Virus genome (UHGV): UHGV-2080389
Reading direction: 5' to 3' (one strand)
Origin: a virus
Length of the DNA: 12,452 nucleotides
The notes beneath the pieces are model-generated. The model had not been told where the DNA came from. It ran no database searches and worked only from the letters and a program-made list of their open reading frames with translations. Both the position numbers and the translations under genes were made by a program. Positions 1 through 10,581 of this stretch are shown here, in pieces (position 1 is the first letter of the stretch; each line of letters opens with the position of its first letter).

Positions 1-392
1 CCCCTCTACCCGATACGCATCTACGTCGGGAAACAACCTGGTATTATCCACTGGAAGCTATTCGCGAAACTGTTGTAAATGCACTGGCTCATCGTGACTG
101 GACACGCTTTGTTGAGATAGAGATTGGCTTGTATAGCAATCGATTTGAAGTTATTAGCCCAGGGGCGCTGAATAATTCGATGTCGATTGAAAAGATGGTT
201 ACAGGTCAGCGATCACCACGCAATACGATTATTATGGAAGTCTTACGTGATTATGGTTACGTTGATTTCAGGGGGATGGGAGTCAGGACAAAGATTATTC
301 CACTAACACAGGCCATGAGTGGCCAACTCCCTGAGTTTACTGCAACAGATGATTACTTGAAAACAATACTTTATCGCTCACCATCTTCTTGA
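1..392 (+). CDS. Putative transcriptional regulator, C-terminal part only (5' end lies outside the window)
   Basis: Frame 3 is open from the window edge to the stop at 390-392. Translation PLPDTHLRRETTWYYPLEAIRETVVNALAHRDWTRF... carries the ALAHRDW-type motif I associate with the HATPase_c_4 C-terminal domain of AlbA_2-type regulators. The tracked ORF 129..392 is only its internal-Met tail. Confidence 0.55.
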   Translation, partial: PLPDTHLRRETTWYYPLEAIRETVVNALAHRDWTRFVEIEIGLYSNRFEVISPGALNNSMSIEKMVTGQRSPRNTIIMEVLRDYGYVDFRGMGVRTKIIPLTQAMSGQLPEFTATDDYLKTILYRSPSS

Positions 393-404
393 TATATAAG
401 GTCT

Positions 405-429
405 GGCCTTTCCATCCATAAGAAAGGCC
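405..429. terminator. Stem-loop between convergent genes (8-bp stem GGCCTTTC/GAAAGGCC, 9-nt loop); possible terminator
   Basis: Inverted repeat read directly from the sequence, lying between the stop at 392 (+) and the stop at 448 (-). Neither strand has a clean U-run after it. Confidence 0.3.
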
Positions 430-447
430 ATTGCTGTAAAAAATAAA

Positions 448-1068
448 TTACCCGCGACTGCAGCCGAAGCTACGGTCGCCATCTCCATATGCTTTTGTAT
501 CGAGTTTAGCTAGGTAGTCGAGACGATTCAGTAATTTATTGTATTCTCCTTCAAAGTTAAAATCATTGACGTCTAAAATATAACGACAATTTTCAGGGTA
601 GTGAACCAATCCCGGATAATCATCCAGTTCCAATCCCAGTGCGCTATACCATGCTCTTACAATCATCATCCTTAAATTTCTTTCAGCCTCATAATCACCT
701 AAATGGTAATAAGCATCTTTATTAAAAAAAAGACCAAGGTGAAAGTGACATTTTCCTTCTTCGGAAAACTCCCGTGCCCAAACATGACGAACACGGTTTG
801 GATATATTCTTTTGCCGTTAGCTGCTCTGGTTCTCTCATTGGCCTCCAACATGGCATTTAATGCATTACGGAAACGGGATATGGCACCAGGCTCTAGATT
901 AGGAAAACAGCAAACAGTGTCACCTCTGTCTAAAATGGGTGGATAATGAACATCAACACGTAACGCCATTGTTCTGGGGAATTCACTGATAGCATCATTG
1001 ACGACTCGTTCAATATGTTTTTTATAGGCGAGCACATGCTCACCATGGGAACCATGATATAATTCCAT
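448..1068 (-). CDS. YagK/YfjJ-family protein (inovirus Gp2-like domain), typical cargo of CP4-type islands
   Basis: 206-aa ORF with ATG at 1066-1068 and AGGA about 8 nt upstream. The protein resembles the YagK/YfjJ family of the E. coli K-12 CP4-6 and CP4-57 elements (recalled, not searched). Confidence 0.7.
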   Translation of the reverse strand: MELYHGSHGEHVLAYKKHIERVVNDAISEFPRTMALRVDVHYPPILDRGDTVCCFPNLEPGAISRFRNALNAMLEANERTRAANGKRIYPNRVRHVWAREFSEEGKCHFHLGLFFNKDAYYHLGDYEAERNLRMMIVRAWYSALGLELDDYPGLVHYPENCRYILDVNDFNFEGEYNKLLNRLDYLAKLDTKAYGDGDRSFGCSRG

Positions 1069-1270
1069 GTTTCGATCCTGTCGTTAGCCCTACGGCTTTG
1101 GATAGCCGTATATAGTAATATGATCAGACATAGCTGAATGTCTGTGGTTAGTTATATTAATTAACTATTAATAGTAATGACTGTTATATAATACCTTTCC
1201 AACAATAAAACTTGTTATCAACCCATTACCCATGCAGTAAAATACTTAAAAAGCAACTCTGCAATTATAA

Positions 1271-1447
1271 TCACCCAAAGATGCCATTATCCCAGTGTCT
1301 TTTTACCGTGGAAATACTTATTCCTAAGATCTTTGCCACCTTGGATTGAGAGTAATGCTTAGCCTTCTCACTCTGAATTAAATGGGAATATTTACTTCCT
1401 TCAGGCCTTCCTAGAATTTTCTTTGATTTTGCTTTGTTAGTAGGCAT
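1271..1447 (-). CDS. Small helix-turn-helix protein (58 aa); below the ORF-track size cut-off
   Basis: Hand-translated: ATG at 1445-1447 preceded by GAGGG about 6 nt upstream, TGA at 1271-1273. Product MPTNKAKSKKILGRPEGSKYSHLIQSEKAKHYSQSKVAKILGISISTVKRHWDNGIFG contains an HTH-like segment (SQSKVAKILGISISTVKRHW). Same orientation as flanking genes. Confidence 0.4.
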   Translation of the reverse strand: MPTNKAKSKKILGRPEGSKYSHLIQSEKAKHYSQSKVAKILGISISTVKRHWDNGIFG

Positions 1448-1529
1448 CTTTTACCCTCATCAAGCTATTAGGTACTAACTCCATACTGTCGAGATGTATG
1501 CAACTAAGTGGTTATGCTTAACATTGGTA

Positions 1530-2294
1530 TCAGAAAGTATGGCTTACTTCACCGTTAAAGGGGTTAATAATGATGGCATCTCCTCCTTTCATCGCCTTTT
1601 GAGGTGTATCGCCTTCGGCAATCACAGGGACCATTACCGCTAGATCATTTGTGTAATAAATTGGTATCCAGCAATAGCATGATTGTTTAGGGGGAGTTTT
1701 ATTTCTTTTCAATACTGCTTCAACTCCAAATGTAATAAGTTCAAAGATTGGCATAATCACAATGCTGCTCAAATCAAAAAAACAACCATCGTAGACTGTT
1801 TCCTTTATCAGTATGATATTAGATAACCCTCCTGCAATGAGATGTTTGTGGTTCACGCGCCGATCTGTGTAAATAAAAATTGCTTTTTTTACATTGAAAC
1901 TTTTTATAATGTATGAGAGCTTTTCATGAATTAATTTTTTTTCGCTCTTACCCATCTTATCATGAGGTATTTTGTGCGCATAAAAATCTTGATCGACAAC
2001 CTCGTTCCGGTGTCGAATGTGAGTGTTCCAGACGGAATGAAAAAACTCTTCGTAAGTTAATTTTGGCTCCCCCCGTGCTATTGACGGGACCTTCTCTTCA
2101 AAAATACAGCCTAATGTTGACTCCAAAGTTTGAGCTATATGATATTGCGATGTTATTTTATTCAATGCTGGGACTGTGGCGTTTAATAAAAATGATATCA
2201 CCTCTGACCTGGAGTATCCTTTTGCATTGCTATAGTCGTCAATTGCATCAATAGTAGAACTATTGTTTACGCTGAAAGTGATGCGTTTTTTCAT
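1530..2294 (-). CDS. Hypothetical protein with an N-terminal ribbon-helix-helix-like segment and a ~200-aa C-terminal region of unknown function; AT-rich
   Basis: 254-aa ORF with ATG at 2292-2294. N-terminus RITFSVNNSSTIDAIDDYSNAKGYSRSEVISFLLN has the beta-strand/helix pattern of RHH (CopG/Arc-type) domains. I recognise no family for the rest. Base composition is visibly more AT-rich than the surrounding genes. Confidence 0.6.
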   Translation of the reverse strand: MKKRITFSVNNSSTIDAIDDYSNAKGYSRSEVISFLLNATVPALNKITSQYHIAQTLESTLGCIFEEKVPSIARGEPKLTYEEFFHSVWNTHIRHRNEVVDQDFYAHKIPHDKMGKSEKKLIHEKLSYIIKSFNVKKAIFIYTDRRVNHKHLIAGGLSNIILIKETVYDGCFFDLSSIVIMPIFELITFGVEAVLKRNKTPPKQSCYCWIPIYYTNDLAVMVPVIAEGDTPQKAMKGGDAIIINPFNGEVSHTF

Positions 2295-2379
2295 ATGTGA
2301 CCTTGAATTTTGTTAATGTGAGATGTGATAAATAGTATTAATCTCCCCCCATTGTTAATGGAAGGTTTGTATTAACTAA

Positions 2380-2405
2380 CCCGGCTATTCTTTAGAATAG
2401 CCGGG
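2380..2405. repeat. Perfect 11-bp inverted repeat (CCCGGCTATTC-TTTA-GAATAGCCGGG)
   Basis: Read directly from the sequence. It sits 12 nt downstream (minus strand) of the AlpA-like stop and upstream of the 254-aa gene start; an adjacent GGAGGCCTC is also palindromic. Confidence 0.5.
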
Positions 2406-2416
2406 GGAGGCCTCTA

Positions 2417-2638
2417 TTAGTTACTATATACTGAGAAGGTTAATAGGTATCTATCAATGTCTTTACGTGACCAATAGTGTCGGTTTTTAATTTTCTTCGG
2501 TCGCGGTAAACCATTAGGCAGTTTGTCTTTGCAAAGCCAAGCTCGAATAGTTTGTACTTCATAGCCAATAATATTAGCTAACTCGCGGGTAGAAATTAGT
2601 TGTGACTGAGAGGGTTTTTGATGTTTGATATCGCTCAT
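2417..2638 (-). CDS. AlpA-family phage/island transcriptional regulator (excisionase-like HTH)
   Basis: 73-aa ORF with ATG at 2636-2638 and a GGGGTG RBS. The motif STRELANIIGYEVQTIRAWLCKDKLPNGLPRPKKIKNRHYWSRKDIDRYL matches the AlpA/Xis-like pattern (HTH followed by a basic wing and conserved W). Lies next to a P4-type integrase. Confidence 0.7.
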   Translation of the reverse strand: MSDIKHQKPSQSQLISTRELANIIGYEVQTIRAWLCKDKLPNGLPRPKKIKNRHYWSRKDIDRYLLTFSVYSN

Positions 2639-3138
2639 TTCATCACCCCAACATTTGATATGTGGGCAAATAAGACGATCATTGTTTTTAACAGAGATGA
2701 AAGAATGAAATGAAAAGGGGTGAATATGGGGTCTCTATCGGGATCGGGGTCGCTACTACTACCATCCGATGAAGATGATGATGAGTTTTTTGATGACGTT
2801 GTTGAACTTCGGCGTGAGCGGGAAGTATTCCCCTTTGGTGGAAAAAGGCATGTTATAGTATTGACTACATTCCTAATAGCAACTAAAAGTTTTGAAACAC
2901 GGTGCCAAAGAGGTAGTATTCGGTCAGTACTACTATTATTAAAACGCTGAATTGTTGTTTCCCAAAAATTAGAACTTTTGTTTTTAGTCGGATGTAAACC
3001 CCATCTCGCTCTGATTTCCGCACTTCGGTCTTCTCTTGATACAGTTATTGGGTTAGTCACTGTAGTTAATCTCCTGCTTAGTGAGTGAATGTAGTTAGCA
3101 GTAATAAAAGATAACTGAAAAAAAATTTCTGTCAACAC
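2635..3138 (-). CDS. Questionable ORF: Ser-rich, low-complexity product; starts with GTG in an AT-rich stretch
   Basis: Open frame whose TGA overlaps the AlpA-like ATG (ATGA). It contains no internal ATG until the last few codons and its product is low complexity (SSTTSSKNSSSSSSDGSSSDPDPD). It overlaps the plus-strand ORF 2726-2950; at most one of the two is real. Confidence 0.2.
   Translation of the reverse strand: MLTEIFFQLSFITANYIHSLSRRLTTVTNPITVSREDRSAEIRARWGLHPTKNKSSNFWETTIQRFNNSSTDRILPLWHRVSKLLVAIRNVVNTITCLFPPKGNTSRSRRSSTTSSKNSSSSSSDGSSSDPDPDRDPIFTPFHFILSSLLKTMIVLFAHISNVGVMK
2726..2950 (+). CDS. Questionable small ORF (74 aa) with an acidic stretch, divergent from the AlpA-like gene
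   Basis: ATG at 2726 preceded by AAGGGG at 2715-2720 (5-nt spacer). Product has GS-rich and acidic segments (SDEDDDEFFDDVVEL) and uses several codons rare in E. coli. The divergent arrangement mirrors yfjH/alpA in CP4-57, which is only weak support. Confidence 0.25.
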   Translation: MGSLSGSGSLLLPSDEDDDEFFDDVVELRREREVFPFGGKRHVIVLTTFLIATKSFETRCQRGSIRSVLLLLKR

Positions 3139-3174
3139 ATGTGATTTTATGTAAGTTGTTGATATTTGATAAAA

Positions 3175-4494
3175 TCAACGCTTATCAACGTTGTTTTTTA
3201 TTTTTGCTTCTTCTAAGATCCATAATTCAACTTTTTCATGCCATTTTCTTAGCAAATCTAATGGACGGCGGCGATAGTGCTTTTCAGCAAGAGCGCTAGG
3301 CTTATGGCCCATAATCTGCGCAACAATACCTGTTGGTACTTCGACCCATTCAGCGAGGGTCCCAAAACTACGGCGCAATCCGTGCAAGCTGATATGTGGT
3401 AACTCCGCGCGAGTTAATGCTCTATTATGTGCTGAACGCGGTTCAATAATTTTGCCACTTTTGCTGTTACTTCTGAAAACCCAATTCTCCTCGTTTGTAC
3501 CACGATTGGGGATCTCCATCAGTGAGCGTAACAAGTCAGAAACATAGGGAGTGAGGGGGATAATTCGCTCGCCTTCGATCTTGTCTTTAATTCTCATGCT
3601 TGACCATTTGAAATCTATGTCAGACCAGCGAAGTGAGGAAATTTCTTCACGCCGTGCACCGGTGAGCAAAAGCACTTGGAGATAGGCTGATGCAATGGGA
3701 TTATTGAGGCTACGCACGGCACTGAACCAGCTTTTGAGCTGTTCTTTTTGTAAGCAATCTCCCGCTTTGCTCGCTGATATTGGAACCATTTTTCTCACGT
3801 TATGATCTTGTGCAAGATCGCCATCGATTATTCCCTGATATTTTTTCTGGTAATTAGCCCATTTGATGAATGCACGCAACAGACGGTAGGCATGAGCAGT
3901 GACGGTAGGCCGATTTTGTCTCTCTGTACTTAGCCATTCGGCAATGTTCTCTGGTGTTAGTTCTGATAATGGTCGGTCGAGCAGGCTAGCCAGTGGCCCA
4001 GGTGAGGTTGGGCCCCGGCCTCTTTTTTTACTTTCGCCTCCACGACTGGACAAGTTAACGTGATCGGCAATGTAGCGTGCAGAGTAGGGGCGTTTAGTTT
4101 TTGCGCTGATTCCGGTTCTCAATTCATCAAGATAATCTTCCCAAGCGCTTGAAAAGGTTGCCTTCGTTTTACGAGATTCAGCCTGCTGTGATTCCGCTTC
4201 AGCAATTTTTTCCGCCTTAGCTATACGCGGATCTATCCCAGTATCGATTAATGTTTGCAGTCGCCTGGCTTCGGCCCTCGCATCATCAATCCTCCAATCG
4301 TTAATGTTGCCAATGGTCATGCGAAGGGTTTTTCCCGCATACAGGCTTTGGAATACAAAGGCTTTTGCTCCACGAGTTGCTCGACATGCCAAGCTTGTTA
4401 CGTCCGTATCCCAAAGGAAAACTTGGTTTTTCCCTTCAGGTAAAGTAAATCTTCGAATTCGTTCGAAGGTTAGTTTTTGTCTTGAAAGCGCCAT
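3175..4494 (-). CDS. int: P4-family (CP4-type) tyrosine integrase
   Basis: 439-aa ORF with ATG at 4492-4494. N-terminal arm-binding-like region (GKTLRMTIGNINDWRIDDARAEARRLQTLIDTGIDP) and C-terminal catalytic signatures (HGLRRSFGT ... EKHYRR, with the Tyr nucleophile context). The start is adjacent to the tRNA-derived att core. Confidence 0.9.
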   Translation of the reverse strand: MALSRQKLTFERIRRFTLPEGKNQVFLWDTDVTSLACRATRGAKAFVFQSLYAGKTLRMTIGNINDWRIDDARAEARRLQTLIDTGIDPRIAKAEKIAEAESQQAESRKTKATFSSAWEDYLDELRTGISAKTKRPYSARYIADHVNLSSRGGESKKRGRGPTSPGPLASLLDRPLSELTPENIAEWLSTERQNRPTVTAHAYRLLRAFIKWANYQKKYQGIIDGDLAQDHNVRKMVPISASKAGDCLQKEQLKSWFSAVRSLNNPIASAYLQVLLLTGARREEISSLRWSDIDFKWSSMRIKDKIEGERIIPLTPYVSDLLRSLMEIPNRGTNEENWVFRSNSKSGKIIEPRSAHNRALTRAELPHISLHGLRRSFGTLAEWVEVPTGIVAQIMGHKPSALAEKHYRRRPLDLLRKWHEKVELWILEEAKIKNNVDKR

Positions 4495-4566
4495 TTTTAG
4501 GGTTCCTGTTGGGGATTACGGTTTACAGTAATGTAACGGCTGGTGTAAGTAAATTGAAAGGATAAA

Positions 4567-4592
4567 CATCAACACTCATCAATTTACATCAA
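4567..4592. repeat. Three CATCAA direct repeats at exact 10-bp spacing (4567, 4577, 4587), the outer two extended to ACATCAACA
   Basis: Read directly from the sequence, between the integrase start (4494) and the att core (4678), followed by an AT-rich tract. Confidence 0.5.
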
Positions 4593-4677
4593 CAGGTTTT
4601 TTGTTTTAATATTATGATTTAAAATGATAAATTTGTGATTTCTGATGGTTGTTCAAGCAGTTAAAATATAAAAACTT

Positions 4678-4726
4678 CGCATTCGTAATGCGAAGGTCGT
4701 AGGTTCGACTCCTATTATCGGCACCA
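4678..4726 (+). other. 3' segment of tRNA-Thr(CGU) (anticodon arm through CCA) without the 5' half: att core / displaced partial tRNA copy
   Basis: CGCATTCGTAATGCGAAGGTCGTAGGTTCGACTCCTATTATCGGCACCA contains an anticodon loop with CGT, a T-arm GGTTCGACTCC, an acceptor 3' strand TATCGGC and CCA. No matching 5' acceptor strand (GCCGATA) or D-arm lies upstream. It resembles the thrW 3' end, the attachment site used by P22-type integrases and by CP4-6 (recalled). Confidence 0.75.
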
Positions 4727-4740
4727 TTTAAATCAATAAG

Positions 4741-5064
4741 TTACCTAGCATTTAAGTAAACCACGTTCTCCTCTTGTGCCGTATTTGTGCCATTGCGACT
4801 TATAATCGCATCGATTTTGCTTGCGTGCTCGGTGAGATGCCCGGCTGAAAGGTGGGCGTATCTTTGAACCATTTCGAGAGTTTCCCATCCTCCCATCTCT
4901 TTAAGTGCAAGAAGAGAGACACCGGACTGAACCAGCCAGCTTGCCCAGGTATGCCTCAGATCATGGAAGCGGAAGTTGCTAATGCCTGCCCGCTTTAACG
5001 CTCCCTTCAGAAATCCATCCATCTCAATTAGTGACATTTGTTTCATTTCTTCCCACTCCGCCAC
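4741..5064 (-). pseudogene. int: C-terminal remnant of a P22-type tyrosine integrase
   Basis: Product [42 protein letters not shown] matches the conserved C-terminal catalytic region of P22-like Int. The tracked 'M' start is a GTG. The frame is closed by a stop roughly 16 codons upstream, and there is no room for the ~280 missing N-terminal codons before the next genes. Confidence 0.7.
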
Positions 5065-6533: not shown

Positions 6534-7022
6534 TCAGAATGGACACGGCCCAAGTAAATAACGCTGATTTAATACTTCAGTCTTTGCCGCATTTAAAAAT
6601 ACGCGAACACCTTCACGATCTCCCTTCTGGCGATACATTAACGCCTGCTGCGTGTACATGCGTCTCCGGTAGCCTGCCGCGTAAATGGCTACGTTTGGAA
6701 GACATACACCAGTTTCTGGTTGCTTATGTCCAAACTCATTCGCGTACACAATGGCCGCTCGCTCCAGATTGCGTCTGTATTCTTTCTGTTGCCAGATCAC
6801 GTCCTGTGCCATGAACTTAATTGGCTTAGCGTCTTCTATGCGCTCAGGCGTTTCGTGAGTACCTTTAGCCTGAATCTGCGCTCTGCTTAGAGTAGGGCGG
6901 TGTAATACTTCTGAACTTATTGCTTCTTCGCGGGCCAGCACGCCGTTAGCTAATGCCTTTGCCTTTAAACGCTCACGACGACGAGAACGTGAATTGCCTT
7001 TGAACTGAGTTCTGCGTGTCAT
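6534..7022 (-). CDS. N-like transcription antitermination protein with a P22-type arginine-rich motif
   Basis: ATG at 7020-7022 with AGGAGG 6 nt upstream. N-terminal GNSRSRRRERLKAKALA aligns with the P22 N arginine-rich motif (GNAKTRRHERRRKLAIER) and lambda N (QTRRRERRAEKQAQW). It is the first gene downstream of PL/nutL. At 162 aa it is longer than lambda N. Confidence 0.55.
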   Translation of the reverse strand: MTRRTQFKGNSRSRRRERLKAKALANGVLAREEAISSEVLHRPTLSRAQIQAKGTHETPERIEDAKPIKFMAQDVIWQQKEYRRNLERAAIVYANEFGHKQPETGVCLPNVAIYAAGYRRRMYTQQALMYRQKGDREGVRVFLNAAKTEVLNQRYLLGPCPF

Positions 7023-7187
7023 ATAGACCTCCTGATGAACTTTGGTGGTGTGGTAGGTGGGAGACCTATTTCGACCTGTTTCGGCCTACTTCAATTCGGC
7101 AATAGTCCCGCAGGCCTCGCCGCTTTACGTGCGACATATTCCCGTCCATGAACCCTTCACCACACCCCAAAGTTCACTTTGGTTATT

Positions 7188-7202
7188 GCGCTTTGTCAGC
7201 GC
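7188..7202 (-). promoter_or_regulatory. nutL boxB hairpin, P22 type (transcript reads GCGCUGACAAAGCGC: 5-bp stem, GACAA loop)
   Basis: Plus strand gcgctttgtcagcgc. Located in the PL leader between the PL start (about 7264) and the N-like start (7022). The 15-mer matches the P22 boxB-left RNA as I recall it. Confidence 0.55.
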
Positions 7203-7270
7203 CGTAGATTCATATTTGAATCGTTGTATATTCACCGCCCTGGTGAGTAGTGCGTCCTGCTGATGTGTTT

Positions 7271-7333
7271 AGTATCACCGCCAGTGGTATTTATGTCAAC
7301 ACCGCTAGAGATAATTTATCACCGCAGATGGTT
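7271..7333 (-). promoter_or_regulatory. Lambda-type OL1-OL2-OL3 operators with PL (-10 GATACT = plus 7271-7276; -35 TTGACA = plus 7294-7299; 17-bp spacer)
   Basis: OL1 at 7273-7289 (TATCACCGCCAGTGGTA), OL2 at 7297-7313 (one mismatch to lambda OL2), OL3 at 7317-7333 (TATCACCGCAGATGGTT). These are the lambda 17-mers from memory. Confidence 0.85.
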
Positions 7334-7418
7334 ATCTGTATGTTTTTTATATGAATTTATTTTTTGCAGGGGTGCATTGTTTGGTAGGTGAGAGATCTGA
7401 ACTGCTATGTTTAGTGAG

Positions 7419-7448
7419 TTGTATCTATTTATTTTCAAATAGATACAA
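7419..7448. repeat. Perfect 12-bp inverted repeat (TTGTATCTATTT-ATTTTC-AAATAGATACAA)
   Basis: Read directly from the sequence, between OL3 and the tIMM-like terminator. Confidence 0.5.
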
Positions 7449-7485
7449 TTGGTTATGTGTTCTTGGGTGAGGGGGATCGTGAGGC

Positions 7486-7511
7486 AAAGAAAACCCGGCT
7501 CTGTGGCCGGG
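7486..7511 (-). terminator. Intrinsic terminator ending the leftward cI/rex-slot transcript (tIMM-like)
   Basis: Minus strand reads CCCGGC-CACAGA-GCCGGG followed by UUUUCUUUG, immediately after the last rex-slot stop at 7520-7522. Confidence 0.6.
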
Positions 7512-7519
7512 AATAACAT

Positions 7520-7898
7520 TTAGGAATCAAGGTCAGGTAGCATGATTTTCTCAATCAACGTCAATGCCCTTTGGTCTCGTTCAGCAAAATATTTAGGAGC
7601 GTACTGAGGCAGCCACACTTCGTTGAAGTATTGTTTGAAATCTGCAATATTCGTTTGGGTATAGACGTACCGGGAATGTCCGGCCATCTGGGTACTCATG
7701 GTTATATGTTGGGAATGTCTTCGGCTCAACCCCCCGGTTGTCACGGAGCCATTGCGAGAAAACCCTACCCTCTGAAATATCAGGGACCATTTTTTCTGGC
7801 AGCGTATATCCGGCCTGTTCAAGTGGCGCAACCAAGTTAAACGTCAGTTCATTAAGCATAGAAAAGTGCGTATGAGGAACTCTGCCTCGGTTTGTCAT
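7520..7898 (-). pseudogene. Disrupted C-terminal portion of the KilA-N-domain gene (two ORF fragments in different frames)
   Basis: ORF 7593..7898 is in the same frame as the KilA-N ORF, separated from it by one TAA (7938-7940) with 13 sense codons between that TAA and the next ATG. ORF 7520..7831 is in the +1 frame. Protein-like sequence runs in the first frame up to about ...FPVRLYPNEY and continues in the second from about ...NIADFKQYFNEVWLPQYAPKYFAERDQ, so the switch is near 7640-7665. Confidence 0.4.
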
Positions 7899-7937
7899 AT
7901 ACCGCTTAAGGTGGATAGGGAGTTCGGCAGGCGCTCT

Positions 7938-8279
7938 TTAACCTGACATCCACTCACGCACCCATCTCGATACTTGCACTGCAAATTTTGGAGATAGCCA
8001 CTGAGCTAAATTAATTGCGATGTCTGGATGAACCCAAGTCCCTTGATTCTCTGCTCTTCCGCCTTTAAATGATTGAATTAACTCCGATATGGGAATCCCC
8101 ATATCGCGTGATAATTCATCAAAAAAATCTTGTGTTGTTTTTAGTCGTGTATAGTCAGCAAGTAGCTTCCCCGCAGACTTGCACATCGCGGTGGCATTGA
8201 TGTATCCGTCTTTGGTGCGAAGATGGATGACTTCTCCATCAACTTCTCTAGCGATTAATGCAAGTTGAAATTGTGTCAT
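7938..8279 (-). CDS. KilA-N (APSES-like) DNA-binding domain protein in the rexAB position
   Basis: 113-aa ORF with ATG at 8277-8279 and AGGA 7 nt upstream, 31 nt downstream of the cI stop. Signature GTWVHPDIAINLAQWLSPKFAVQVSRWV is typical of the KilA-N domain. Confidence 0.7.
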   Translation of the reverse strand: MTQFQLALIAREVDGEVIHLRTKDGYINATAMCKSAGKLLADYTRLKTTQDFFDELSRDMGIPISELIQSFKGGRAENQGTWVHPDIAINLAQWLSPKFAVQVSRWVREWMSG

Positions 8280-8310
8280 AAATCATCCTATTACGTGAAA
8301 AATAAAACAA

Positions 8311-9027
<717 letters not shown>

Positions 9028-9034
9028 TTAAATC

Positions 9035-9100
9035 TATCACCGCAAGGGATAAACTTCTAACACCGTGCGTGTTGACTATTTTACCTCTAGCGGTGATAAT
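9035..9100. promoter_or_regulatory. Lambda OR3-OR2-OR1 with divergent PRM/PR (PR -35 TTGACT 9072-9077, -10 GATAAT 9095-9100)
   Basis: OR3 at 9035-9051 (TATCACCGCAAGGGATA), OR2 at 9058-9074 (TAACACCGTGCGTGTTG), OR1 at 9082-9098 (one mismatch to lambda OR1). The PR spacer is 17 bp. Confidence 0.9.
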
Positions 9101-9124
9101 GGTTGCCTGTACTAAGGAGGTTGT

Positions 9125-9325
9125 ATGGAACAACGCATAACCCTGAAAGATTATGCAATACGCTTTGGGCAAACCAAGACGGCTAAAGATCTCGGCGTAT
9201 ATCAAAGCGCGATTAACAAGGCCATTCATGCAGGCCGAAAGATTTTTTTAACTATAAACGCTGATGGAAGCGTTTATGCGGAAGAAATAAAGCCCTTCCC
9301 AAGTAACAAAAAAACAACTGCATAA
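9125..9325 (+). CDS. cro: Cro repressor (lambda type, 66 aa)
   Basis: [66 protein letters not shown] differs from lambda Cro at two positions from memory. AGGAGG RBS upstream. Confidence 0.95.
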
Positions 9326-9333
9326 GTAACACC

Positions 9334-9378
9334 GCTCTTTTCACAATGGACATTCGTCCTACGTCGCTGACAAAGCGA
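9334..9378 (+). promoter_or_regulatory. nutR: boxA-like CGCTCTTTT (9334-9342) and P22-type boxB hairpin UCGCUGACAAAGCGA (9364-9378)
   Basis: Located between the cro stop and cII. The boxB has the same GACAA loop and 5-bp stem architecture as nutL. A small hairpin (ATGCGT-TTCC-ACGCAT, 9409-9424) follows and may be part of a tR1-like region. Confidence 0.55.
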
Positions 9379-9462
9379 GCCCCAAGATATCTGACCAACT
9401 AAGGCCATATGCGTTTCCACGCATACCTTTCAACTAACTATTCACTATTGGAAAATTAACAA

Positions 9463-9759
9463 ATGACACAAGCAAGTTATAGCAAACCAACACAGCGAGA
9501 AATTGATCGCGCTGAAACTGATTTACTCATCAACCTGTCAACGCTTACCCAGCGCGGTCTGGCAAAGATGATTGGCTGTCATGAATCGAAGATAAGCAGA
9601 ACGGACTGGAGGTTTATTGCTTCGGTCTTGTGTGCTTTCGGAATGGCATCAGACATCAGTCCGATTAGCAGGGCTTTTAAGTATGCATTGGATGGAATCA
9701 CAAAGAAAAAATCCCCGGCCGCCACCGAGGATTTTAAGCAAATTGATATGCAATTCTGA
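9463..9759 (+). CDS. cII: CII-like transcriptional activator
   Basis: 98 aa. The central ...SKISR...W... segment and the C-terminus KKKSPAATEDFKQIDMQF resemble lambda CII (...KKRPAATERSEQIQMEF), but the protein overall is a different allele. Confidence 0.7.
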   Translation: MTQASYSKPTQREIDRAETDLLINLSTLTQRGLAKMIGCHESKISRTDWRFIASVLCAFGMASDISPISRAFKYALDGITKKKSPAATEDFKQIDMQF

Positions 9760-9791
9760 GGTCATTACTGGATCAATCTACAGGAGTAATT

Positions 9792-9953
9792 ATGACAAAA
9801 CGTCGTAAGAAATACCAGGAAAAAGAAGAGATTCGACACCCTGATTCACCTGAGGGATTAGTGGTAGCCGCAGCAAATAACAGGGCGTTCGCAGAGCGCC
9901 TTGTTGGTGTTTACAGACTAGCCAAAGCAGGAGTGAAACATGGGCGTCGTTAA
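9792..9953 (+). CDS. Small hypothetical ORF (53 aa); below the ORF-track cut-off
   Basis: ATG at 9792 with AGGAG 5 nt upstream. Product MTKRRKKYQEKEEIRHPDSPEGLVVAAANNRAFAERLVGVYRLAKAGVKHGRR, stop at 9951-9953. It overlaps the next ORF by 14 nt. Confidence 0.4.
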   Translation: MTKRRKKYQEKEEIRHPDSPEGLVVAAANNRAFAERLVGVYRLAKAGVKHGRR

Positions 9954-10110
9954 GTTAGCTGATTACAGGCCTCAACTGGAGGTCGTGGAGCATCGCGTGG
10001 CAGAACTCGAAGATGGCTACACTCGGACTGCAAACACACTGTTAGAAGCCGCCATGCTTTACCGAATACTGAAGAATTACGCCAAAACCCTGACAGGAGC
10101 AGGAGTATGA
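9940..10110 (+). pseudogene. O-like replication initiator: N-terminal stub only (56 codons)
   Basis: ATG at 9940 with AGGAG upstream. The segment VAELEDGYTRTANTLLEA aligns with the lambda O N-terminus (VADLDDGYARLSNMLLEA, recalled). The frame then ends after about 20 more codons, with no room for the remaining ~250 codons of O or for P. Confidence 0.45.
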
Positions 10111-10195: not shown

Positions 10196-10581
10196 ATGCG
10201 TGATATTCAGATGGTTCTTGAGCGTTGGGGAGCGTGGGCGGCTAATAATCATGAANNNNNNNNNNNNNNNNNNNNATTGCCGCCGGTTTTAAGGGATTAA
10301 TTCCTTCAAAAGTAAAATCTCGCCCGCAATGTTGTGACGATGACGCGATGATCATTTGCGGGTGCATGGCCCGTCTGAAAAAGAACAACAGCGATTTGCA
10401 CGATTTATTAGTAGATTATTATGTAGTCGGTATGACATTCATGTCACTGGCAGGTAAGCATTGCTGCTCTGATGGTTATATCGGGAAAAGGTTACAGAAG
10501 GCTGAGGGCATAATTGAAGGGATGTTAATGGCATTAGATATCCGGTTAGAGATGGATATCGTTGTTAATAACTCTAATTAA
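10196..10581 (+). CDS. Q: Q-family late antiterminator (phage 82 / QuuD type), interrupted by a 20-N gap
   Basis: ATG at 10196 (GGAG 7 nt upstream) gives [20 protein letters not shown] up to the N-run. After the N-run the frame of ORF 10348..10581 reads [36 protein letters not shown]...VVNNSN. Both halves match my recollection of Q82/QuuD. Confidence 0.75.
10256..10275. other. Run of 20 N: assembly or scaffold gap, not biological sequence
   Basis: Literal n characters. Flanking Q codons are out of frame by one across the run, so its length is a placeholder. Confidence 0.95.

Follow-up and report, generated by a model that had tools for sequence, protein, structure and literature searches.

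A premature stop codon and a 2-nt deletion interrupt a bstA-family gene in the cI-N cargo slot of a lambdoid prophage

Positions 7520-8279 on the minus strand of the window (the whole stretch of 12,452 nucleotides from UHGV virus genome UHGV-2080389 that was analysed) very probably hold an inactivated gene of the bstA family, which occupies the cargo slot between cI and N and has been broken by the nonsense mutation E114* and a 2-nt deletion in the course of ordinary decay. No evidence against the inactivation of full-length BstA was encountered. BstA, which is encoded by prophages, acts by abortive infection and combines KilA-N, a DNA-binding domain, at its N terminus with BstA_C at its C terminus (Owen et al. 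2021, PMC8585504). The BstA_C domain corresponds approximately to residues 156-307 of BstA-BTP1, and defence, in which replication of phage DNA is blocked, was assayed for BstA of BTP1, for one E. coli homologue and for one Klebsiella homologue; lambda, phi80, P1 and T7 are reported to be sensitive to BstA (PMC8585504).

Layout and family of the interrupted gene

The remnant as a whole spans 7520..8279 (-), which is 760 nt compared with 762 nt in the intact allele. The sequence and the list of ORFs showed that the KilA-N ORF at 8279-7938 (-) encodes 113 aa and ends at a TAA at 7940-7938. On the 3' side of this stop codon there are 13 in-frame sense codons and then an ATG at 7898-7896, from which an ORF of 101 aa (-) remains open to 7593. 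A further ORF in the +1 frame was found at 7520..7831 (-). Every coordinate given in the initial annotation was reproduced here.

Aligned with the intact alleles, the three pieces fall into one gene. Fragment 1 (7941..8279, -) is a complete KilA-N domain ORF of codons 1-113, matched by Pfam PF04383 and PHROG 6287, and the premature TAA at codon 114 follows at 7938..7940 (-). Fragment 2 (7647..7937, -) contains native codons 115-211 in the original frame, with matches to PADLOC BstA and PHROG 6287; the ATG at 7898-7896 is the native Met128 and not a genuine gene start. In fragment 3 (7523..7645, -), which is matched by PHROG 6287, the native codons 213-253 have shifted to the +1 frame. The original stop codon, also a TAA, was placed at 7522-7520 (-) by comparison with the intact allele. 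Fragment 1 is likely the sole piece to be expected as a native polypeptide.

A lambda-type cI repressor gene of 237 aa (8311..9024, -), annotated in identical loci as a LexA family protein, is located directly upstream of the remnant, and 31 nt separate the cI stop codon at 8313-8311 from the ATG at 8279-8277. An AGGA motif resembling a Shine-Dalgarno sequence was read from the sequence at 8286..8289 (-), 6 nt 5' of this ATG. Directly 3' of the original stop codon, a GC hairpin and the T run after it resemble a terminator (7494..7511, -; CCCGGCCACAGAGCCGGG TTTTCTTT), and this hairpin is also kept in the intact YA-1 allele. With these two signals noted, the remnant would still be transcribed together with cI, in the manner of lambda cI-rexAB, and PRM, the promoter of cI, would drive it. 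The product in a lysogen would then be a free 113-aa KilA-N domain, with no functional BstA_C, and the BstA-type defence would therefore be lost.

The gene had been described in the initial annotation as a KilA-N gene. A KilA-N domain is indeed present in the ORF at 7941-8279 (PF04383, E 1.7e-27, model positions 4-106/107), but the gene is a member of the BstA abortive-infection family. The three pieces in the window match phrog_6287 (BstA) at positions 6-121 (E 4e-28), 164-253 (E 7e-30) and 255-301 (E 3e-8). Since these are consecutive segments of one profile, the split pattern is not due to chance. The PADLOC BstA model matched the second and third pieces, with E values of 4.3e-12 (ORF 7596-7898, profile positions 160-226) and 0.037, and a 55-aa gene call at the position of fragment 3 in related loci gave a weak match to PF26567 BstA_C. 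BstA of BTP1, used as the positive control for the PHROG 6287 and PADLOC models, was detected with E values of 2e-150 and 2e-124.

The intact 253-aa protein matched PHROG 6287 BstA over its full length (E 1.8e-82) and PADLOC BstA at residues 120-237 (E 2.5e-20), and BLASTP aligned it to BstA-BTP1 with 29% identity in the C-domain only (E 5e-15). The precomputed Pfam assignment of this protein consists of KilA-N and PF26567 BstA_C. In the local Pfam copy, no match to the C-domain was obtained for the intact protein or for the two C-terminal fragments, and hence the evidence for BstA_C comes from PADLOC, PHROGs, BLASTP and the precomputed Pfam assignment. NCBIfam had no model for the intact 253-aa protein. 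A PDB sequence search returned marginal Mbp1 (APSES) matches to the KilA-N part (E ~0.04) and no structure for the C-domain.

The position of the remnant within the prophage, directly 3' of a repressor gene, is that of the BstA family. On the basis of profile and pairwise homology to BstA-BTP1 together with synteny, we assign the 253-aa subfamily to the BstA family. In BTP1, the first 34 bp of the gene overlap with aba, a DNA element which shields the phage from its own BstA; such elements are specific to each allele (PMC8585504). No CCCGCC terminal repeats were observed at the 5' end of the remnant, and 14 of 63 positions were identical to aba-BTP1 when the comparison was anchored at the ATG; because aba elements are allele-specific, this dissimilarity says little. 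The two domains are found in one polypeptide in the intact alleles, whereas in the window they are separated by the TAA at codon 114 and the deletion at codons 211/212. Without a continuous two-domain ORF, the copy in the window is a pseudogene of the BstA family and not a working member.

Lesions, haplotype and host prophage

A megablast search against 5,426 complete E. coli genomes gave 22 close copies at an identity of at least 95%. Fifteen of the 22 have a length of 762 nt and share 99.3% identity with the window; their annotation is a single 253-aa "KilA-N domain-containing protein" (WP_000191544.1), and its translation is continuous for 253 aa through both interruptions seen in the window. 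The intact gene was also found in an isolated phage, Escherichia phage PhiR5_2 (XSB41358.1). All other homologues have a single ORF, namely the Klebsiella-type alleles (96%), a 257-aa E. coli paralogue group (117 genomes), and those of three vB_EcoS phages (87%), a Proteus phage (80%) and BTP1. The initial annotation had read the locus as a single product split in pieces, and both the colinearity of the fragments with one BstA profile and the existence of an intact 253-aa gene bear this out. Homologues made up of three independent genes would have spoken against it; the opposite was seen, as those at 99%, 96%, 87%, 80% and 29% are all single continuous ORFs. Phages vB_EcoS-666R9 and 613R10, in which two annotated features underlie the match, were considered as carriers of split copies and rejected: the gene of 257 aa is intact in them, and a small ORF upstream of it accounts for the second feature. 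The ratio of intact to TAA copies was 17:5 among the close copies in complete E. coli genomes and 23:9 in IMG/VR.

Base-by-base DNA alignment to the intact YA-1 allele revealed exactly four differences in the window, namely G9A, G340T, a deletion of nucleotides 633-634 and C652T. The G340T change, at window position 7940, converts GAA into TAA (E114*). It falls in the linker between residue 112, the last of KilA-N, and about residue 120, where the match to BstA_C begins. At codons 211/212, TAT CTT GCA of the intact allele now reads TATTGCA, with either TC or CT lost, so that the deletion site at 7646..7648 (-) is ambiguous by one base. The deletion moved the last 41 codons to the +1 frame, and past it the old frame continues for 17 foreign codons up to a TAA at 7595-7593. 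The ORF starting at Met128 consists of 84 native and 17 foreign residues and lacks the conserved last 41. G9A, a synonymous change (Q3) at 8271 (-) which serves as the fourth haplotype marker, and C652T (H218Y), at 7630 in fragment 3, have no effect by themselves. The initial annotation had postulated a nonsense mutation and a 1-nt deletion, with a frame change near ~7650 at the ACCCAAACG run at 7660-7652. The nonsense mutation holds, but the alignment to intact homologues gives a 2-nt deletion, which is situated 4-6 nt 3' of the run.

The four-change haplotype was recovered from 2 closed genomes (EC2641 and 1008S19), 10 further NCBI/ENA contigs, six of seven JGI/ENA metagenome contigs and 8 IMG/VR contigs; the last were identified by the deletion-junction pattern, and the TAA was present in all 8. 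Among the ~30 copies there were no intermediates of this haplotype, with either the TAA only on the 339T background or the deletion only, and the TAA-junction pattern had no match in species-representative genomes. Some copies have continued to decay. Strain 81 has lost one G from the G6 run and carries CC to TA at 597-598, locus L054 has gained one G in the same run, and L054 shares T551G with L049. These extra indels and substitutions are all located in the C-terminal part.

The remnant is part of a 2.8-kb cassette (7163-9970) comprising the region after the cargo, the bstA remnant, cI, cro, cII and a small ORF, and this cassette is 99.6-99.95% identical among loci with differing left and right flanks. 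It matches the immunity regions of HK97, mEp234 and lambda everywhere except in the bstA segment. Several carriers (L010, L012, L015 and L016) have complete replication, nin and N regions. Since the broken haplotype is fixed in the cassette and some carriers have locally complete early regions, it predates the decay of the prophage in the window. The initial annotation had tied the lesions to the other decay in this prophage, a connection which is contradicted by the fixation of the same haplotype in the cassette of many prophages. The lesions would have arisen once, in an ancestor of the immunity cassette (~7163-9970). Recombination between lambdoid prophages and the expansion of clones may then have spread them with the cassette, before the prophage in the window lost its replication and nin genes.

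The slot between the lambda-type cI and N has the same conserved flanks in different phages (window 7232-7480 and 8311-9339), and its cargo differs by phage. The cargo is rexAB in lambda, hicAB in mEp234 and HK106, gp48/49 in HK97, and bstA-like in PhiR5_2 and the window. In related loci, bstA was found 3' of at least six different S24 repressor types. In the Klebsiella loci, a second copy of the 3' end of the repressor gene (CCTGATGAGSTGTTTGGGTGA) lies just 5' of bstA (L028, 3870-4000), and this duplicated end is probably a recombination joint by which the bstA cassette moved between repressors.

The rest of the prophage is degraded, and this degradation (O/P/ren/nin, N and integrase) is independent of the bstA lesions. 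The O, P, ren and nin genes, which in E. coli D5 lie between cII and ylcG/quuD (L043, 4046-8140), are absent from the window (~9340/10016 to 10059), and the prophage is therefore replication-defective. The ORF of the N antiterminator at 6534-7022 (-) encodes 162 aa compared with 127 aa in related prophages. Homology to N stops at 6665/6666, where approximately the last 9 codons have been replaced and the ORF runs into sequence upstream of an erf-like gene, implying a deletion of the ral/sieB/cIII/kil region. At window 1-4795 and 4741-5064, a separate and unrelated island of the P4 integrase type adjoins a lambdoid integrase ORF that is truncated. The island carries genes for an inovirus Gp2-family protein and an ATP-binding protein, and other E. 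coli have islands with 99.9% identity to it. Twenty consecutive N at 10257-10276 fall inside the quuD-like Q antiterminator gene (~10197-10581, +), where E. coli D5 has 18 nt.

Readings of the interruptions and the recurrence of E114*

The two interruptions could in principle be bridged by programmed recoding, in which readthrough of the TAA and a +1 ribosomal frameshift would rebuild the full-length protein. The geometry of the locus is the one point in its favour, as the frame stays open 3' of the stop codon and the native sequence is taken up again in the +1 frame. However, both interruptions are missing from the 99.3%-identical alleles and from every more distant homologue, and the proposed shift site is a deletion scar. 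RNA structure in the 96 nt 3' of each lesion was no better than in shuffled sequences (z of -0.08 and +0.50), and an Rfam search gave no match, leaving recoding without a stimulatory RNA structure or Rfam element. Moreover, derivatives of the haplotype bear further frame-breaking indels, and two independent low-efficiency events would be needed in one mRNA. We consider recoding extremely improbable. An error of sequencing or assembly in the window, with a true source reading GAA and TATCTTGCA, is just as hard to credit. Nothing counts for it, the only related fact being the masked N run at 10257-10276 elsewhere in the window, and the identical four-change haplotype recurs in ~30 assemblies of independent origin, closed genomes and gut metagenomes among them, for which different technologies were used; this rules out a sequencing artefact. 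With no recoding signal and with the same lesions in ~30 independent assemblies, neither recoding nor sequencing error explains the interruptions, and comparison with intact homologues agrees with the preference of the initial annotation for pseudogenisation over both.

The same nonsense mutation was also found outside the haplotype of the window. The exact 113-aa protein is present in at least 1000 public contigs (1970 index blocks), and the intact proteins reach a comparable abundance, with 924 and 670 contigs (1559 blocks for the latter). Alleles of at least 95% identity are carried by roughly 5000 public contigs. A Klebsiella allele ending at residue 113 equals the common intact Klebsiella allele with only A241G and G340T added. 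It has no other lesion, and at position 339 it carries C where the window carries T. That E114* also occurs on an allele with another base next to it points to two or more independent origins, and the most parsimonious account of these sequences would be that the window type and the Klebsiella type represent two independent hits of one mutation. A conversion tract starting exactly at nt 340 is possible instead of two origins. In a third TAA type (H5/H6, L025 and L055), the TAA lies within a recombination patch at approximately nt 271-461, and this type seems to have taken it from the Klebsiella type by recombination. Alleles with E114* only and an otherwise undamaged C-domain ORF (L003/L008 from E. 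coli H6/H5, L025, L055 and L028-L032) were observed in E. coli and Klebsiella prophages with early regions that are locally complete in appearance.

This recurrence raises the question of whether the truncation has been selected and is not neutral, which we consider unlikely overall. A stand-alone KilA-N domain co-expressed with cI would then have a function of its own, perhaps as a decoy or dominant-negative form which blunts a cognate BstA or binds its aba, or as a regulator. The TAA-only alleles might alternatively encode one half of a two-polypeptide BstA; the C part in the window would be dead regardless. In favour of selection, G340T is found on at least two backgrounds differing at base 339 and at ~20 other sites, and there are 109 single-base changes by which a stop codon could arise in the gene, of which G340T is only one. 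The TAA alleles are abundant; the counts for the three types are at least 1000 contigs, 118 blocks and 23 contigs. In E. hormaechei, a 124-aa form has its frameshift two codons further on and is adjoined by an intact ORF for the C part, and on the window haplotype every additional mutation falls in the C part, bar one synonymous change. Natural homologues with only the N half or only the C half exist (Owen et al. 2021, PMC8585504).

Against selection, the coincidence was spotted after the fact, and truncations at 69, 81, 93, 175, 176 and 239 aa also occur, showing that loss of this gene is common anyway. The ~5 mutational events on the TAA haplotypes are too few to test constraint on KilA-N. 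The TAA alleles may owe their abundance to an immunity cassette or a host clone that was successful and with which they hitch-hiked, and no convincing Shine-Dalgarno sequence precedes Met128 or Met141 for separate expression of the C-domain. A short gene-conversion tract could also have carried the TAA, as apparently happened in the H6 allele. Still, the KilA-N ORF is intact in each of the copies seen, and together with the abundance and the recurrence of E114* this indicates that the N-terminal fragment may not be a purely neutral remnant. The most specific version, namely that E114* arose independently at least twice, at the very boundary between KilA-N and BstA_C, and owes its high frequency to a benefit from the free KilA-N domain made with the repressor, is quite unlikely in our judgement. 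Such a domain might neutralise the cognate BstA of competing prophages, or it might relieve self-targeting while keeping DNA or aba binding. A selected stand-alone KilA-N domain, or a functional split BstA in the TAA-only alleles, is possible, but we would give either a low probability.

The RefSeq label "KilA-N domain-containing protein" for the 113-aa product should become that of a bstA-family pseudogene, and surveys of defence systems should score this very common allele as non-functional. The locus provides a case of a prophage defence gene lost in the cI-N slot while its immunity cassette still spreads. The role of the KilA-N half was left open by the BstA paper (PMC8585504), and nothing usable was found in later mechanistic literature on the BstA domains. 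If the repeated nonsense mutation at the domain boundary is selected, it would inform on what this half does alone.

Comparison with known systems

Among the closest known relatives of the gene in the window is the intact allele WP_000191544.1 of E. coli YA-1, D5, ML35 and others. The DNA identity is 99.3% over the whole gene, and the two loci share the lambda-type cI/cro cassette, the flanks and the terminator. In lambda, rexAB is an exclusion/abortive-infection module expressed in the lysogen. The rexA-rexB genes occupy the same slot directly 3' of cI, but the proteins are unrelated to those of the window and the cargoes have no homology.

BstA-BTP1 (ST313-td) resembles the intact relative in matching the same PHROG 6287 and the same PADLOC model, with 29% identity in the C-domain. 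As in the window, its gene is located directly 3' of the prophage repressor gene and 5' of N; in BTP1, c1 is followed by bstA (ST313-td), then by a small ORF in reverse orientation and N, and the genes of the window are arranged alike. BstA-BTP1 is 307 aa long, whereas the intact relative of the window gene has 253 aa, and the KilA-N half of BstA-BTP1 could not be aligned by BLASTP to that of the intact relative. Unlike BstA-BTP1, the copy in the window is interrupted by both a stop codon and a frameshift and hence cannot be a working BstA.

Stand-alone KilA-N domain proteins (PF04383) have reportedly been described from phages (Iyer et al. 2002), and the 113-aa product in the window is likewise a nearly bare KilA-N domain. 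In contrast to those stand-alone phage genes, the form in the window derives from a two-domain gene through a nonsense mutation and is not ancestral.
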